Position numbers and translations under genes: made by a program. Under the pieces are notes generated by a model. That model was not told the DNA's origin, did not search any database, and saw nothing but the letters and a program-made list of their open reading frames with translations. From an uncultured Candidatus Saccharibacteria bacterium (lineage in GTDB: Bacteria; Patescibacteriota; Saccharimonadia; Saccharimonadales; SZUA-47), in NCBI GenBank assembly GCA_964536485.1, contig CAZHXX010000006.1, positions 6,777-70,776 on the forward strand: 64,000 nucleotides of DNA, written 5' to 3'. Of the stretch, positions 23,529-54,651 are shown one piece after another (positions within the stretch are counted from its first letter, which is position 1; each line of letters starts with the position of its first letter).

Positions 23529-24050
23529 TTAGTTAGCTTTTGCAGCAACTGCGTCAAGCAGCCCATGCAAATTGCCTTTTAGACCGCTCATGACACCATT
23601 GACTGGTGATTTCAACGTATTGATAACGGTTGCAATCATAACCTCGCGTGACGGAAGTACAGCTAAAGCTTTTACCTCTTCAGCACTCATCATTTTGCCG
23701 GTTGCATCAAATGCAGCCACAAATTCAAGTTGCTTCTCTGTCTTTGCAAGCTCATGAATAACCTGAGCAGGTGCGACCTCGTCAGTACCGTTGAAGGCGT
23801 ACATAAGCATACCTTGCAAAGCACTGGTGTCGGCTTCTTTGTGTGAGTCGCTTGCTGCAAAGGCTTTTTCAACCAAGCGGTTTTTGACCACTTTTACGAC
23901 AGTGCCGTTTTCTTCTGCTTTTCGGCGAAGTTCTTGCAATGCAGCGACGGTTGTACCTTCGTACTTCACGACAACAGTCATCTTAGCGTTGCCGAGTAAC
24001 TCAACAAGCTCTTTGACGATTTCATTTTTCTTATCTTTAGTAAGAGCCAC
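23529..24050 (-). CDS. rplJ: 50S ribosomal protein L10
   Basis: 173 aa, 'MALTKDKKNEIV..L...', immediately upstream of rplL. Confidence 0.95.
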   Translation of the reverse strand: MALTKDKKNEIVKELVELLGNAKMTVVVKYEGTTVAALQELRRKAEENGTVVKVVKNRLVEKAFAASDSHKEADTSALQGMLMYAFNGTDEVAPAQVIHELAKTEKQLEFVAAFDATGKMMSAEEVKALAVLPSREVMIATVINTLKSPVNGVMSGLKGNLHGLLDAVAAKAN

Positions 24051-24121
24051 GGATTAGTCCTTTCGTTAGCGTCTTATTTATCAGTCGTATCGACCATTTA
24101 ACTGACTTGTTACCGAGAATT

Positions 24122-24151
24122 AAAAAACGTCTCTCGATTACTCGTGAGACG
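24122..24151 (-). terminator. terminator/attenuator hairpin in the rplJ leader
   Basis: CGTCTC/GAGACG stem (plus 3 inner bp) followed on the minus strand by TTTTTT; lies between the 148-aa ORF and rplJ. Confidence 0.5.
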
Positions 24152-24298
24152 CATTCTTATGCTCAAAAACAATATTTTCATATCGCCTCGACGGCACGAT
24201 TAAGTGATTTCTCACAGCCGTTGTCTACGGTAACTAAGTCAGTATATCATTCTCTCTGTTAATTGTCTAGCCAAGAGGCAACAAGATAATTATTCTGT

Positions 24299-24745
24299 TC
24301 AAGGGGTCAATCCCTTTAACTCATTAAAATCTATCAAAAATGGTGCATCTGGGACAAGTACCCTACCAACCGGTTTTAGTCCCAACTGTTTTCCTGATTC
24401 AGGCTTTGCTTCTTCGGCGATCCCGAAATAGCTTCGCATTCCATCCACAAAATCGAGTTGCGCATTCACTAATCTTTGTAAATGTTCTACAAACTGGCCG
24501 TCTTCTTGATGCTCTAATTGCCCAACAACATATCTATTTATCGCAATCTCACTCGCACGCCGTACACGCTCAAAACGTCCTAACGGTGTTGTTACGTCAT
24601 AAGCCTCTAGTGCATCTCTCTCTTCGTCAGTTATTGGCGTAAGTCTGTTTTCAGGTGGCTTTCCGCCAAAGTATGCATTATCAGGAGGGGTTTTTATTGA
24701 CCTTCCCTGTTCTTGAATAGTACTAATTCTATCGCCGTAACTCAT
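24299..24745 (-). CDS. hypothetical protein
   Basis: 148-aa ORF; GGAGAT SD-like sequence upstream of ATG. Confidence 0.55.
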   Translation of the reverse strand: MSYGDRISTIQEQGRSIKTPPDNAYFGGKPPENRLTPITDEERDALEAYDVTTPLGRFERVRRASEIAINRYVVGQLEHQEDGQFVEHLQRLVNAQLDFVDGMRSYFGIAEEAKPESGKQLGLKPVGRVLVPDAPFLIDFNELKGLTP

Positions 24746-25157
24746 AAATTATCTCCTTTAAAATTAAAAACTTCCCCAGTTGGAAGTCTTCTTTGTTTTA
24801 GAGCTGTGATCGTCAGCGTTTTTTAAACGCGAGACTCCAACCGTGCAACGCACAGCTCCTGGAGACTGAGGAGGAGGTGTTGTCGATTGTTCATCCGTTT
24901 ATAGTAGCTTATATACATAAATAACACAAATTTATAAATACCCTAAAAAAGTGATACAGTAATCAACTGTCTTTACCGGCACAGTTCAGGCCATACGTTG
25001 AAATGCTATCTTCGTTAAGTACGAAAGCCAGTCAAAAACATGCTACTTACCTATCCACCGCTATGTTTTCCTCTCGCTGTCAATACGCATTGCGACGGCT
25101 CCATAGTAGTACCTTAGTCTAACTTCGTCGCAGAGTCTCAGAGCCATTACGTAGATA

Positions 25158-25186
25158 TTGACAAAACAGTATAAACTGTGATATTA
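25158..25186 (+). promoter_or_regulatory. sigma70-like promoter giving a near-leaderless mRNA
   Basis: TTGACA (25158-63), 17 nt, ATATTA (25181-86), 9 nt, ATG 25196; no SD. Confidence 0.5.
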
Positions 25187-25195
25187 TATATAATA

Positions 25196-26677
25196 ATGAG
25201 TAACTTTGACCCTTTAGCTGAGCGGTGGGAGCTTCTGCAACGTCAGCCCGAGATCGTGTTGCCTGAACAACTTGGTTTGACTTCAGACAATCCAGCACTG
25301 TTCGCAGTACAAGACTTTTCTTTGCGCGTGCACGAACCCCGAGCTCTTGATCATCCTCTAAGAGTTGCAAAAATTCTTCATGACTTTGCTGGTACTATGC
25401 TTCCACAAGAAGCGTTTGAAGCAACATTACTTCACGACGTGGTCGAGCGAGCTGAAGCAAAAGAGGGTTTGCAAACAAAAAATGCCAAACAAGTATTACT
25501 CGGGTACTTTGATGGAATGAAAGGCGAAGAAGACAAAAGTATCTACGTCTCATCTCTTCTAGCAGATATGAGCCTGGTCGAAGAAGCCGCTGAAACATAC
25601 CGAACAGCAGAAAACGAAGATCCTCATCTTAAAGAAATTCTAAGTGGTAACACAACAGATCAAGCCATTAAAGTTCAGCACTGGATGGAGAAAAGCAGAG
25701 TTATTAATGTTGAAACGATGCATGAGTTGCTTGAACAAGTAAACCTCGAATCGGTACTCATTAAAGCAGCAGAACTTCTCGACAACCTTACTTATGTTCC
25801 ACCAAAAGACCGCTCACTTATTCAAGACATCTTTGAAGCGGAGTCTTTTTATGCTCCGTTGTGTGAAATTCTCGGCTTTGACGGTCTTTCTATGGCACTG
25901 CGTGATGCTGCTGCTCGTAATAGATCTGAAAAATCCGGAAATACGCTTATACAAGCACAGGCGCTTGAGATGCGAGATAACGTGATTGATGCTGGCTCAA
26001 TTGATTCAGTTGTTGAAGCTATTTTTGGAGACAATGCGCTCACAGCACCAGTACTTGGACAACTATCTGACCACGGCGTACGCATTGACGAAGTTATCGC
26101 CTCATTAAATGGCGCAGAATTAGCGGGGGTTGCTCGCGTCAAGAGTGTTGGGTCGCTTGCCCTAAAACTTGCTAGAGGCGCAGGCGAGCGTCCAATGGAT
26201 ATTGTTGGCATGACGTTTGTAGCAAATGATGTTACAGAAGCAAGTATCTTCTTCCATGCATTACTTGCACGCTTAAAAAATATTGATGTAGCTCAGCTTC
26301 AGCCCGCACCATCTCGTAAAGAAGCGGTACACATAAGAGGTGACAGCTCTTATATCTCCGAGTATACAAAACATATGGATCCAGACATAGAAGTGGACGA
26401 AAAACCCGAAGAGCCTGGTGCTTATCAAGTCGCCAAAGTCACGGCCCTATTTTTTGGAGTCATACCTGTCGAAATTCAAGTACAGACGAAAGATGACCGT
26501 AAAAATGGTCGTATAGGCACGGCTTCACATACGACATTTAAAGACGGAGGCACTGGTCTACGCACAGAATTACTTGGCTCAATCTATGACAGAAAACGAC
26601 GTCTTGCAAGAGATAGAATTAATGTTAACGGTCAGTCAATTGCACGTGGGCTCACATTACTACAAGGTTTGCGCTAA
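25196..26677 (+). CDS. divergent RelA/SpoT-homologue (HD domain plus (p)ppGpp-synthetase-like nucleotidyltransferase domain, no TGS/ACT)
   Basis: Track ORF trimmed to ATG 25196; 'DHPLRVAKIL', 'ATLLHDVVERAE' (HD present, ED replaced by ER); 'ARVKSVGSLALKLAR', 'DIVGMTF', 'VEIQVQT...G.ASHTTFK'. Confidence 0.7.
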   Translation: MSNFDPLAERWELLQRQPEIVLPEQLGLTSDNPALFAVQDFSLRVHEPRALDHPLRVAKILHDFAGTMLPQEAFEATLLHDVVERAEAKEGLQTKNAKQVLLGYFDGMKGEEDKSIYVSSLLADMSLVEEAAETYRTAENEDPHLKEILSGNTTDQAIKVQHWMEKSRVINVETMHELLEQVNLESVLIKAAELLDNLTYVPPKDRSLIQDIFEAESFYAPLCEILGFDGLSMALRDAAARNRSEKSGNTLIQAQALEMRDNVIDAGSIDSVVEAIFGDNALTAPVLGQLSDHGVRIDEVIASLNGAELAGVARVKSVGSLALKLARGAGERPMDIVGMTFVANDVTEASIFFHALLARLKNIDVAQLQPAPSRKEAVHIRGDSSYISEYTKHMDPDIEVDEKPEEPGAYQVAKVTALFFGVIPVEIQVQTKDDRKNGRIGTASHTTFKDGGTGLRTELLGSIYDRKRRLARDRINVNGQSIARGLTLLQGLR

Positions 26678-26723
26678 AAATAGTTTATTCCAATACTGGC
26701 AAGTACTCTTTTCTTAAAATAGT

Positions 26724-27967
26724 TTAAGCAGTCGTCAATGTTGTTGCCGGGATCGAAAAGTCTCTTCGTAGATTTTCTACAAGCTCAGGAAGCGTGCTGT
26801 CCTTAAAAGTAGTAAGTGGCTCGGCACGACGCCAATCAACATGCGGATATTTTTCTCTGTCGCCATCTCGCTCTACCATGCCTCTCACGCTCGCGAGTAT
26901 CTGTCTACCGTAGCGTCTTCCGCGACTATCATTAGCGTAGGCATTGCTACGGTCTCGCCCATCGTTTATTCGTGCACTGATGACGCCATTTCCAAATATA
27001 TTATTCGCAAGTATATCTTGCTTTTTTCTATACTTCGCAAGCCGGGCATTAAACTGCTCAGCAGACTCGCCTTCTTTTTGCCGGGGCTCAGGGAGCCTGT
27101 CTATTTGGTAATTATGGTAGCTGTCTCCGGCCGGTTTGACAATTGCTGAAAGAAAGTTACTTACGAGTCGTGCAACATACTCTTCGTAGGTGTGCATCCA
27201 GGGCTGACCCTTTTCGTGCGTCATCAGCCTTGTTGCGTTTGCCACATATGCTGGTAGCGTCCCACGAAGACCTGCTTTTTGAAGCAATGTTTTTATAACT
27301 AAAGGAGAAATAACCTGTATATTTTCGTCGAGCGAGTAGTGGTCGGTGTGCTTTACCCAATCTTCAACAGAATCATGCATCAAGCACGTGGCAAGCAAGG
27401 CAGCAACTTCCTTTTTTGGGACACGCACACTCCCTTCCTGTGCTCGTTTTATGGCCTCGTAGAGAATTGCCGTCGCTTCAAGCGGATGTTGACTAAAAGG
27501 CGTTGCAGCATCTTTTTTCTATATTTGCCAGCCACAGACACTTCACAAGTTCGCCACGAAGCTTGCATAACCTGTGCTTCCCATTCCGCCTCTGTATCCA
27601 CAACAGAGAAAAGTGATTGAGTCATCGCTACAGCTCGTCGAGCGGGGACTAACAATCGTTCTCTTGTAGAAGCTGGGAGCAAACGATGTTCTATCCCTAT
27701 AGGTAATGTCTGGTCATAACTTGTATAAGCGCTCCCGTTGTCAACTACCACTATCGCATCAACACCATCGGCTAAAATACAATCTACAAGCAGTTGTGCC
27801 GGCTCAAGCTTAAGCTCTTCTGCCAGTGATTCTACGAAAGAATACCTGACATTGTGCAGGTACTCTCGCATATCTCCATTACGGGATCGACGTGAAGGAT
27901 CGTATAAATGGAATACCGTATTTTGTGCAAGCGAAGCGCCGACAACACCAGTTTCAAATAGTTGCAA
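26724..27967 (-). CDS. HD-domain (p)ppGpp-hydrolase-family protein interrupted by a -1 frame change at A_AAA_AAG
   Basis: My translation upstream of the track ORF 26724..27428 gives 'KKDAATPFSQHPLEATAILYE...LLATCLMHDSVEDW...VKPAGDSYHN' (complete RSH-type HD motif set) with no start codon. It joins the 172-aa ORF 27449..27967 by a -1 shift at 27512-27518. Confidence 0.6.
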
Positions 27968-28031
27968 ACAAAACTCCCAATACTTTTAACTACACTATAA
28001 CAATTTGTGCTTTAATGCAACCTACTGTTGT

Positions 28032-30359
28032 TTATAATCGACTCAACTTAAACTGCGTGTACCGCTCAGCGGCCAATCGGGTCAGTTCTGGGTCTTCGTC
28101 TTCGTTTACAAACTTCATAGCTTCACCCAAAAGTGGGTGCTTGCTGGCAAGTACCTCGTGCATTTCACGTACTAATTTACGGTAGCCCGGGTGGCCATGT
28201 GGCGTGGTGCGGAGTTCGTGGAAGTGGAAGGCTTGGCGAGCATTATAGGTAATCTTCCAGCGCATTTTATGCCCGAGTAAGGTTGCGTATTGGGCCTCTT
28301 TTTCGTAGCCAGCAGCTACTAAAATGCTGTGGAGTTTAAGGCTCATATCAAAACAATGCTGGAATTGTTCGGTAAGGCCAGCTCGGTCCACAAGCTCGGG
28401 GACATCATAGCCGTAACGTGGGGTCAAATCTTGCCAGGTTAGGTCGTCAACCAAGCGGTGTCTTTGCAAATCTCTAAAAATACCATAATCACACACCAAG
28501 TCCCAGCTGTAGTGAGCTTTTTCAAGCGCTCTACCTGGTTTGTGTCGTCTGTTGAGGCGCTCACCCATATAAGCGTGAAACACTTCAGCCTTTTCATCAT
28601 ACGACCATGTTTCAACCGCGCTCTGTATTTCGCGTAAGCTCATGGTGCTGTGTTCGTACAGCATGTCAGCCACCAAATCGAGCTCATTCTTTGGCCAGTA
28701 GCTGACGAGGTCGACAGCTTTCTGGCTCGATGAATTCATAGACGGTAACATAGTGTCGGCAAGTTGTTTCACCGCATCGCGTGTATTTGCTCGGTAGGCA
28801 ATGTTCGCACCACCCCGTTCCGGCTTGTCGGCTCTCTCTAAGAAAGTTGGCATAACCTTACGAGATTCACGCAACAGTTTTTCACCAGTCTCGCGCGCTT
28901 CTGGGAGCTCGTCCGCTAGCAAGTGCATAATCAGGCTTTCAAGAGCCTGTCCAGAGGCAAAAATTCCCACAGTAGCCTTTGTTGATACAGGCAACACTGC
29001 CCGAACAGCATCGCATGCTTGGGCCCGAGTTGCTCCTTGCCACGCAATATCCCGCTCAGCTTTTGGCGTGGTTGACTCTGCACGCACAAAGTCGGTGAGT
29101 TTGTGCACCATATCAGAGTAGGTATCAAAAATCTGGTCGGTAATGTCTACATACATTTTCTTTGTCTTGTCGTCAAAATGTTGCGGCACCACATAGCGGT
29201 AAGCACCATTTTCATCACGCTGGTCAAAGTAAATGTAGCGCGTTGACTGCTCAAGATAGGCAGCCAGTCGTCCCCATTCAAGCTTTTTGGTAAGCAAATT
29301 GCTCGCTCCTTCCACCACGACATGTTGCCCGACGAGCTGCTGGACAGAATCGTCCCCATAAGCAGTAATAACTCTTTGCAAGAGCTTTTCGTCTTTTCGT
29401 GTTGCCGCCCCAGCAAACTCATCCAAAATAGTAATGCGCATGTCATCTGCACGCCTACTCAAACGAGCCATAGCAGCCGCAATCGTAATCGGGCTCATCT
29501 TGTCGCTAAAAGCATACACATTGCCTTCGGTATCGGTTACGGACTCAGACAGGTACTGCTTGCCCGCCTCAGTCATGACAGTTTGGCCGTCTTTATTTTT
29601 TGCCACGTATGGTTCATGTATATCAACACCGCGGGTAACCGTCCCTTTTTCAGCTGAACCTGCCGGTGGCAGAAGTGGCTCTATGTCACCCCATAAGAGT
29701 TCATGCACTTGTTCCACAGTAAGCAAGTTTTTGTTACGCACACAGTCGATTCGTATAAAATCCTTCGGAAACAGTGCACACAAATCATCATACACATCAA
29801 CAGATCGGCGTAAGTGGTCCGCGTCGGCCTCATGAATATCGCTCGAACGTTCAGGGTTCTGGCTCGCTCGCTCGTCAAGCAGTCGTTTACTGGTTTCCGC
29901 ATCAACTCGCAACACAAAGCTTGCAGTAGGTCGTGGGATGGCAAGCATCTGGTATTCGAGGTTATCGAGCCAGATAAAGTATCCACGTCGCTCTTCAGGG
30001 TGCGCAAATTTTGTGCCTTGATGTGCCATATTGCTTCCAGTAAAGCGGTTTGCCAGCACTATCTTTCCTTCAAGTAATGAGCGTTGAATCGCCTCACGCG
30101 CAGAGAAGCGGTCTAGTGCATAAAAGACGCTTGCCGTGTAAGGCCCTACTTGGTCAGCCTGCCCATAGTTGCCTTTCAAATATTCGCGCACATAAAAGCT
30201 TGAATCCAAATCATATTGTGGAAAATCAAAGGTGACGACATCATAACCCTCGCTTGCTAGTCGCTTTGCAAGCTTTTGGAACTGCGTCGTCTTACCCGAA
30301 GCATCAGTTCCTTCTATGACAAAAAACCGCCCACTCGTATTATGCTGCTTCACTGGCAA
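28032..30359 (-). CDS. fusion protein: thymidylate kinase plus tandem-domain FAD-dependent thymidylate synthase (ThyX-like)
   Basis: N-term 'FFVIEGTDASGKTTQF', 'LDRF' (Tmk). Then two ThyX-like repeats: 'GDDSVQQL..QHVVVEGASNLL...EQSTRY' and 'YSWDLVCDYGIFRDLQRHRLV...TPRY'. Confidence 0.8.
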   Translation of the reverse strand: MPVKQHNTSGRFFVIEGTDASGKTTQFQKLAKRLASEGYDVVTFDFPQYDLDSSFYVREYLKGNYGQADQVGPYTASVFYALDRFSAREAIQRSLLEGKIVLANRFTGSNMAHQGTKFAHPEERRGYFIWLDNLEYQMLAIPRPTASFVLRVDAETSKRLLDERASQNPERSSDIHEADADHLRRSVDVYDDLCALFPKDFIRIDCVRNKNLLTVEQVHELLWGDIEPLLPPAGSAEKGTVTRGVDIHEPYVAKNKDGQTVMTEAGKQYLSESVTDTEGNVYAFSDKMSPITIAAAMARLSRRADDMRITILDEFAGAATRKDEKLLQRVITAYGDDSVQQLVGQHVVVEGASNLLTKKLEWGRLAAYLEQSTRYIYFDQRDENGAYRYVVPQHFDDKTKKMYVDITDQIFDTYSDMVHKLTDFVRAESTTPKAERDIAWQGATRAQACDAVRAVLPVSTKATVGIFASGQALESLIMHLLADELPEARETGEKLLRESRKVMPTFLERADKPERGGANIAYRANTRDAVKQLADTMLPSMNSSSQKAVDLVSYWPKNELDLVADMLYEHSTMSLREIQSAVETWSYDEKAEVFHAYMGERLNRRHKPGRALEKAHYSWDLVCDYGIFRDLQRHRLVDDLTWQDLTPRYGYDVPELVDRAGLTEQFQHCFDMSLKLHSILVAAGYEKEAQYATLLGHKMRWKITYNARQAFHFHELRTTPHGHPGYRKLVREMHEVLASKHPLLGEAMKFVNEDEDPELTRLAAERYTQFKLSRL

Positions 30360-50010: not shown

Positions 50011-50086
50011 TGGCAGGAGTGACAGGACTTGAACCTGCAACCAACGGTTTTGGAGACCGCTACTCTACCAATTGAGCTACACTCCT
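50011..50086 (-). tRNA. trpT: tRNA-Trp (anticodon CCA), CCA-3' encoded
   Basis: Hand-folded cloverleaf: acceptor AGGAGTG/CACTCCT, D arm GCTC/GAGT, anticodon arm GCGGT-CTCCAAA-ACCGT, T arm GCAGG-TTCAAGT-CCTGT, 76 nt. Confidence 0.9.
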
Positions 50087-50211
50087 ATGAAACACTTTGT
50101 TAATAATACCAGGTTCAAGCCAGGACTTGCGCCTTATTTGCTCCTCGAAGTGCAAGCACTCTCGTCGGCCAAGCTTGGAAAACTCAGAAGTTCACAGAAC
50201 TTCTTCGCCAG

Positions 50212-50262
50212 TGCAACCAACGGTTTTGGAGACCGCTACTCTACCAATTGAGCTACACTCCT
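50212..50262 (-). pseudogene. truncated tRNA-Trp copy (positions 1-51 only)
   Basis: 53-nt block 50212-50264 identical to 50036-50088; T-arm 3' half and acceptor 3' strand missing; followed by hairpin 50186-50204 plus TTTT. Confidence 0.85.
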
Positions 50263-53944: not shown

Positions 53945-54013
53945 CCCGCCTCTGCTCCTTAAAATTTATATATTTTGCTTATGGCTAGCATGAGCCATGC
54001 ACTAGAAGGACGA

Positions 54014-54488
54014 TGCCTGCCCTTTACCCAGCCTTACTTTTGCCTGCAGGTGCAAAAGTAAGCAAAAACCCCGCAGCCTACAATAAGAACATGATTGCCA
54101 TACAGAGAAATGACAGCGTTCCTTGCGGAACACAAGCGGTCAAAAGTAGTTATTAAATAAGAAGACTTTTGACTAGTCCTCGGAAATGATTCGTTGTCAT
54201 TTCTCTGTATGGCATCAGTCTTATTGTTAAAGGCTGGTTAGGCTACAGTAGCTCTGTAGCTAGTCAGCACCGCAAGAAAACCGATGGTCTCAGCTAAAGA
54301 TTCTATTGAATCACTTCCGAGGACTAGCCGAGTTACTCTACTTTAGTAACTAACGAGGCCGCTCGCCGTTCCGCAGGAACGATAGAATCTTTAGCTGAGC
54401 CAATAGTGCTTTTCTTGCATGTTGCGGACTTTTTGCATACTTTTGAGACTGCAGTCAAAAGTATGGCGTGGGGTAAAAGGGGCTGGCA
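54014..54488. ncRNA. candidate large ornate structured RNA (unclassified); strand undetermined
   Basis: No ORF >=60 aa in 53945-54594. Closing helix 54014-54032/54466-54488 encloses two 11-bp hairpins, two ~165-nt rods with perfect 18-bp and 16-bp cores, and a 7-bp hairpin (details in findings). Confidence 0.6.
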
Positions 54489-54651
54489 CTAGCCCCTCAG
54501 AGCTTTTTGACTGTCAAAAAATAAGAGCCGTCTGTCGCGCGAAAAGCCACATTAAGAGTCGAAGACTCTTTCAAAAATACGGCTAAAGAAGGCATTGGAA
54601 AGCAAAAATATATTTAAAGAATTTAATAAAACTAGAAAAGGAATCTATCTT

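Follow-up and report, generated by a model that had tools for sequence, protein, structure and literature searches.

A single-base lesion, rather than programmed frameshifting, very probably splits a Rel/SpoT-type hydrolase gene in a Candidatus Saccharibacteria contig

In a 64,000-nucleotide stretch of contig CAZHXX010000006.1, from an uncultured Candidatus Saccharibacteria bacterium (the whole stretch is called the window here), a gene for a putative HD-domain hydrolase changes reading frame at the heptamer A_AAA_AAG. Is this a site of programmed -1 frameshifting, or a broken gene? A preliminary description made from the sequence alone had left three options: a programmed shift, a genuine frameshift pseudogene, or an assembly error in the run of As. 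The last two survive our analysis and the first does not. The split is very probably an ordinary single-base lesion, by mutation or assembly error, in one gene for a 414-aa hydrolase.

All features of the split gene lie on the minus strand (Table 1). The TTG start of the upstream 0-frame ORF aligns with the ATG of two homologues, P0002 and P0003, and the ORF encodes hydrolase residues 1-153, which comprise an N-terminal extension, the first helix of the HD domain and Arg150. At the break it reads ...GGC AAA TAT AGA AAA AAG ATG CTG... and runs on through a 20-codon out-of-frame tail, MLQRLLVNIRLKRRQFSTRP, to a TAA. At the lesion, within 27505..27525, the contig reads AGAAAAAAGATG. Right after the TAG that limits it upstream, the -1 frame reads AAA AAA GAT GCT GCA... 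and meets no stop for 262 codons, until the one at 26724..26726. The frame change at the heptamer was thus correctly described at the outset, as were the lack of an upstream start in the -1 frame and the identity of the codon at 27428, a GTG. A -1 slip, or the restoration of one base, would join the two parts into a protein of 414 aa, slightly shorter than the ~420 aa first proposed. We considered a two-piece enzyme with translation restarting at this GTG, but rejected it, as the C-terminal piece would lack H161 and the helix of residues 160-179 and is unlikely to form an active enzyme.

Table 1. Features of the split hydrolase gene and its surroundings (positions in the window).
Feature	Position	Strand	Details
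Upstream 0-frame ORF	27967..27449	-	172 aa; TTG start 27967; stop TAA 27451..27449, 20 codons past AAG
Shine-Dalgarno-like GGGAG	27978..27974	-	6 nt 5' of the TTG start; read directly from the sequence
A_AAA_AAG heptamer	27518..27512	-	X_XXY_YYZ register (AGA AAA AAG); site of 1-nt gap against L001
TAG in -1 frame	27521..27519	-	directly 5' of the heptamer; upstream limit of the downstream frame
Downstream -1-frame part	27511..26724	-	residues 154-414; H161 (HP), H198-D199 (HD), E202-D203 (ED), K278/D282/H285/N286, C-terminal extension
First possible restart codon in -1 frame (GTG)	27428..27426	-	first ATG/GTG/TTG in that frame
Convergent RelA-like protein	25178..26677	+	499 aa, very divergent; synthetase-type EIQVQT motif; degenerate HD motifs HDVVER, KAAELLDN
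Thymidylate kinase-ThyX fusion	28032..30359	-	775 aa; thymidylate kinase N-terminal; Pfam Thy1 in two stretches; upstream neighbour
Variable segment of ~4 kb	24050..28032		three genes: hydrolase, RelA-like, 148-aa ORF 24299..24745 without family match

The protein is not easily recognised. Pfam and NCBIfam scans of the 414-aa fusion and of the 172-aa ORF gave no match, nor did a PADLOC scan, and the window protein did not pass the Pfam gathering threshold for HD_4 or HD. Even among 28 family members, HD was matched in only three (best E=0.01) and HD_4 in one (E=0.034). Because Pfam and NCBIfam miss the window protein itself, its identity as a hydrolase had to come from a family profile and a structure model. 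Only five relatives were found in 5.8 billion protein clusters, four of them single ORFs of 377-409 aa that cover 92-99% of the fusion, at 74% identity for P0001 and 57-58% for P0002, P0003 and P0004. When 1.84 billion representatives were searched exhaustively with a profile, about 20 further, distant full-length proteins (263-442 aa) came to light, which also span the break site. Searched with the family alignment, the JGI metagenomes gave one extra locus, and the GTDB species genomes and IMG/VR gave no match.

In the resulting 28-sequence alignment H161, H198, D199, E202, K278 and N286 are invariant, R150 is nearly so, and D203 and D282 are conserved. The motif series, G..R..G.PY..HP / HD..ED / K..D..HN, aligns to the same motifs of Thermus thermophilus Rel and MESH1. 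The 28-sequence profile matched T. thermophilus Rel in the PDB (7ohg/6s2t, E=3.2e-9), followed by RelA (8fr8, 7e-8) and MESH1 (3nr1, 6e-5), the HD match starting at about residue 117-132 of the fusion; a smaller 6-sequence profile found no match in the PDB. Aligned by hhalign with what we take to be the human MESH1 sequence, the family profile gave a probability of 96.4% (E=1.2e-9), and deposited MESH1 chains were matched independently in the PDB profile search. From the deeper alignment AlphaFold (AF2) produced a model in which the fusion forms one compact chain (mean pLDDT 92.6, pTM 0.92); with only 6 sequences the model was unusable (mean pLDDT 46.5). Its best Foldseek neighbours in the PDB were Pseudomonas aeruginosa SAH (6z3o/6yvc, probability 1.00, TM 0.65 normalised to the target) and then MESH1, with modest E-values (0.02) because only the core aligns. 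The HD core also matched PHROG 990, 'metal-dependent phosphohydrolase' (E=8.9e-8), a phage family whose profile length, 374, is close to the size of the window family. A tblastn search found no match in 50,697 phage records, however, and the locus, unlike the phage proteins, is chromosomal, between thyX and the rplJ-rplL operon.

Profile and model together indicate that a single gene occupies the locus, encoding a stand-alone HD phosphohydrolase of 414 aa, of the Rel/SpoT type (SAH/MESH1-like), with an N-terminal extension of ~130 aa and a C-terminal extension. This agrees with the RelA/SpoT-type assignment originally made from the motifs. The repaired protein may be a (p)ppGpp/(p)ppApp pyrophosphohydrolase. 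It has R..G.PY..HP, HD..ED and K..D..HN in common with SAH and MESH1 (P. aeruginosa SAH, 6YVC/6Z3O; human MESH1, 3NR1/5VXA) and with the hydrolase domain of long Rel/SpoT proteins. It is about twice as long as SAH and MESH1 (~180 aa), however, and its two extensions and its inserts are all packed into the one compact model. The family appears to be a previously unannotated group of extended SAH/MESH1-like hydrolases, comprising the Saccharibacteria members and a few dozen other metagenomic proteins.

The position of the break within this protein matters. The HD domain had been thought complete in the -1 frame. The motifs from H161 onwards are indeed there, but the first HD helix and Arg150 belong to the upstream 0-frame ORF. 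The frame change therefore falls within the catalytic fold: it lies in the loop that leads into the HP helix, after the near-invariant R150 of the R..G.PY..HP motif and ahead of the invariant H161. The proposed contrast between an N-domain product and an N-domain-HD fusion does not hold, as the break is not at a domain border.

The orthologues bear on the nature of the break. The 414-aa fusion is colinear with every homologue, and its alignment with P0001 has no gap across the junction (...VSVAGKFRKNDAATPFSQHPLEATA... against ...VSVAGKYRKK/DAATPFSQHPLEATA..., the slash marking the junction). Intact relatives are single ORFs in all seven cases, which include P0001-P0004 and the genes of L004 and L006. 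At DNA level the site reads CGT AAG AAT GAC GCT in L001, CGT CAA GAT in L002, CGC AAG GAC in L003, and CGT CAA GAC in both L004 and L056. The heptamer is absent from all five of these closest orthologues, each of which runs in one frame. MAFFT placed a single-base gap in the window sequence against L001 (CGT AAG AAT GAC GCT against AGA AAA AA- GAT GCT). In the nearest lineages (P0001, L055, P0007 and P0008) the residues at the site are R-K-N-D. Intact single-frame orthologues without the heptamer are what the preliminary description itself had named as evidence against a programmed shift.

One further member of the family is also split. In L055 (3487..4720; ENA ERZ28573518 scaffold_12781) the gene is divided into ORFs of 150 aa and 239 aa because 8 nt are deleted 12 codons upstream of the position of the window lesion. 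This deletion is unrelated to that lesion, gives a +1-type shift and involves no slippery site. By chance, two lesions would be expected to lie this close in about 6% of cases. We considered whether their proximity could be a sign of a selected split and rejected this, taking it as coincidence or local mutability.

The alignments point to the loss of one nucleotide at codon 153/154, which would throw the catalytic core out of frame. Given the ancestral R-K-N-D, the lost base would most parsimoniously be the T or C of an Asn codon following the A6 run; alternatively, it could be one A of an A7 run. The undeleted site would then read AGAAAAAA[T/A]GATG. Whether AGA AAA AAT/AAC lost its final base or AGA AAA AAA lost one A, the outcome is necessarily AGA AAA AAG AT. 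Because base loss in a Lys-rich A-tract leaves such a heptamer automatically, the fact that the gene is split exactly at A_AAA_AAG is no evidence of programming. The heptamer is a by-product of the base loss and no evolved recoding signal, and the A-tract makes indels, whether biological or technical, more likely at this site. The case is a caution for searches for recoding and carries no weight as a recoding candidate.

Most ribosomes would make the truncated 172-aa product, which would probably be useless. The heptamer is in exact register and the -1 frame opens there, which counts against a simple lesion to the extent that translation could mechanistically deliver some full-length protein. 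With no stimulator to help it, spontaneous -1 slippage at the heptamer would probably yield at most a trace of it, because in E. coli reporters such unaided heptamers reach at most about ten-fold over a background of ~0.05% (PMC4066793).

Is the base missing from the organism or only from the contig? A real and recent deletion seems to us the best single answer, a little better than an even chance overall, and within the non-programmed reading it is somewhat likelier than a consensus or assembly error. The downstream frame is 64-65% identical to the outgroups, as is the intact P0001 (64-69%), and it keeps all invariant residues. Because it shows no decay, the lesion must be recent or artefactual. 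That its 262 codons are so perfectly kept also counts to some degree against an ordinary lesion. In the deposited contig, one base by or in the A-run may have been dropped while the organism's gene is intact; we regard this as a substantial but lesser possibility, with all remaining readings together clearly improbable. The missing base lies in or beside an A6/A7 homopolymer, the source is a single MAG contig and the downstream frame, with no excess divergence, is flawless, all of which would fit such an error. Set against this, a comparison with ORFs of 56 related loci was possible for ~20.7 kb of the window, and the only frame break there is the one in this gene. The other candidate split ORF pairs in the window are separate complete genes, and the overlap of ORFs 60232/61476 is between a complete GT4 gene and a separate, complete GH57 gene. 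The assembly is thus not indel-prone. Parsimony from R-K-N-D also argues that the non-A third base of the Asn codon was lost, which would not be a homopolymer miscall, and real lesions do occur in the family, as the 8-nt deletion in L055 shows.

In the public record the two fragments are called separately as hypothetical proteins, P0009, whose 140 aa take in the out-of-frame tail, and P0006, of 218 aa. A cluster look-up traced both to one and the same 73,566-bp NCBI contig, so the deposited assembly itself carries the lesion. Exact look-ups of the window ORFs and of P0006 and P0009 gave no contig.

The thymidylate kinase-ThyX fusion upstream is conserved in 50 Saccharibacteria species loci at 44-85% identity, the relatives all being Candidatus Saccharibacteria/Saccharimonadales MAGs. 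Just downstream of the hydrolase segment the window has an L10 leader and rplJ-rplL. Between thyX and rplJ, related Saccharibacteria are variable: in most of the loci (L005-L054) rplJ follows within a few kb of thyX with no hydrolase or RelA-like homologue, and among the 50 species loci only L006 has a homologue of the hydrolase (36% identity). The remaining loci of the hydrolase family (L001-L004, L055 and L056) are short metagenome contigs. The gene is accessory, and it is loss-prone, since nearly all of the 50 related species loci are without it and the L055 copy has an independent deletion of its own.

The convergent RelA-like neighbour has weak Pfam matches to HD_4 and RelA_SpoT, and its homologue in L007 passes the RelA_SpoT gathering score. 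E. coli RelA is hydrolase-dead; the HD motifs of the neighbour resemble it, and from its sequence its hydrolase site appears degenerate. A RelA-like gene lies beside the hydrolase in L001 and L006 as well, but in none of the other loci; in L007 it is present alone. The two genes may form a synthetase/hydrolase pair encoded separately in Saccharibacteria, a pairing that bears on alarmone handling in these reduced bacteria, both on whether it takes place and on the means. Losing the hydrolase beside a RelA-like synthetase might be deleterious, and this potential cost tells against a plain inactivating mutation; it would speak either for an assembly error or for leaky expression under selection.

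In the second of these readings the deletion is real but tolerated, a strong down-regulating allele from which spontaneous -1 slippage supplies low but sufficient hydrolase. We think this improbable. A_AAA_AAG is the best and most shift-prone -1 motif in bacteria, the downstream frame is intact, and with a neighbour that seems hydrolase-dead some hydrolase could be needed. Compensatory frameshifting after indels has also been documented in small-genome organisms (PMC5009743). Yet slippage without stimulators would stay under the low E. coli ceiling given above, an intact downstream frame is equally explained by a recent lesion, and the hydrolase gene is dispensable, because many related Saccharibacteria lack it. 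A more specific version, which we hold to be a shade less probable still, is that the deletion has been kept as an 'attenuator' allele, with a slippage trickle of the only active alarmone hydrolase opposing the adjacent hydrolase-dead RelA-like synthetase. If true, this lesion would have reset alarmone homeostasis in an ultra-small epibiont.

The poly(A) indels of Buchnera and Blochmannia (PMC5009743) are a close documented parallel, each an A-tract indel in a small-genome, host-dependent bacterium with an intact downstream frame. Those runs are of at least 9-10 As, however, with 12-50% of transcripts corrected (PMC5009743), whereas the window has only A6 and no sign of efficient correction. 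Transcriptional slippage was rejected for the same reason, since to be efficient it needs runs of about nine or more (PMC5009743).

Programmed frameshifting of the dnaX type, in which a 172-aa product and the 414-aa trans-frame hydrolase would both be made deliberately and at a fixed ratio, is very unlikely. A canonical A_AAA_AAG does stand in register with the upstream frame, as AGA AAA AAG, with the -1 frame opening exactly there and the 0 frame stopping 20 codons later. The heptamer and its X_XXY_YYZ register are identical to those of E. coli dnaX (tau/gamma), as first noted. The likeness ends there. The dnaX signal is conserved and is flanked on its 5' side, at ~10 nt, by an internal Shine-Dalgarno sequence and on its 3' side, a few nucleotides away, by a strong stem-loop; the window site has neither stimulator, and its orthologues lack both the heptamer (in the five read as DNA) and the two-frame layout, the L006 homologue too being a single ORF. 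The downstream stem suggested by the preliminary description was looked for in folds of 40, 60, 87 and 100 nt, none of which exceeded dinucleotide shuffles in stability (z = 0.0 to +1.1). There is no GGAGG-like run in the 30 nt 5' of the heptamer (GAAGTGTCTGTGGCTGGCAAATATAG), and no Rfam frameshift element was matched even at E<=1. In dnaX the shift gives the shorter product, whereas here it would be needed for the only functional one; the short product would be truncated after the first helix of the catalytic domain and carry 20 junk residues.

The heptamer is also frequent in ordinary genes of the window. Across 57 other ORFs, with 16,463 codons in all, there are eight in-register copies of A_AAA_AAG where codon usage would predict ~3.5, so the motif is not rare, nor is it avoided. 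It occurs twice more inside the hydrolase gene itself, at 27417 and 27027. The second of these belongs to a 15-nt string, AAA TAT AGA AAA AAG (K-Y-R-K-K), found on the minus strand both at the lesion (27518..27512) and in the C-terminal extension (27027..27021); this repeat is probably a coincidence in a Lys-rich protein.

A phase-variable switch, in which slipped-strand changes between A7 and A6 toggle the hydrolase on and off and the MAG consensus caught the OFF state, is just as unlikely as programming: the lesion is at an A-tract, and contingency loci would be plausible in Saccharibacteria, which are host-associated epibionts with small genomes, but a tract of A6-A7 is on the short side for a contingency locus, the window has 89 A/T runs of six and 17 of seven with no other broken genes, the relatives have no A-tract at the site, and parsimony favours a lost non-A base.

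Two observations concern other parts of the window. The window is densely coding except at 53950..54590, where ~0.6 kb has no ORF longer than 55 aa and no Rfam match (E<=0.1). On the minus strand at 50145..50262, beside tRNA-Trp (50011..50086), there is a weak Rfam tRNA match of 118 nt that scores 31.2 bits, just over the gathering score. ARAGORN, including its intron search, called no tRNA there; the element could be an interrupted or degenerate tRNA.
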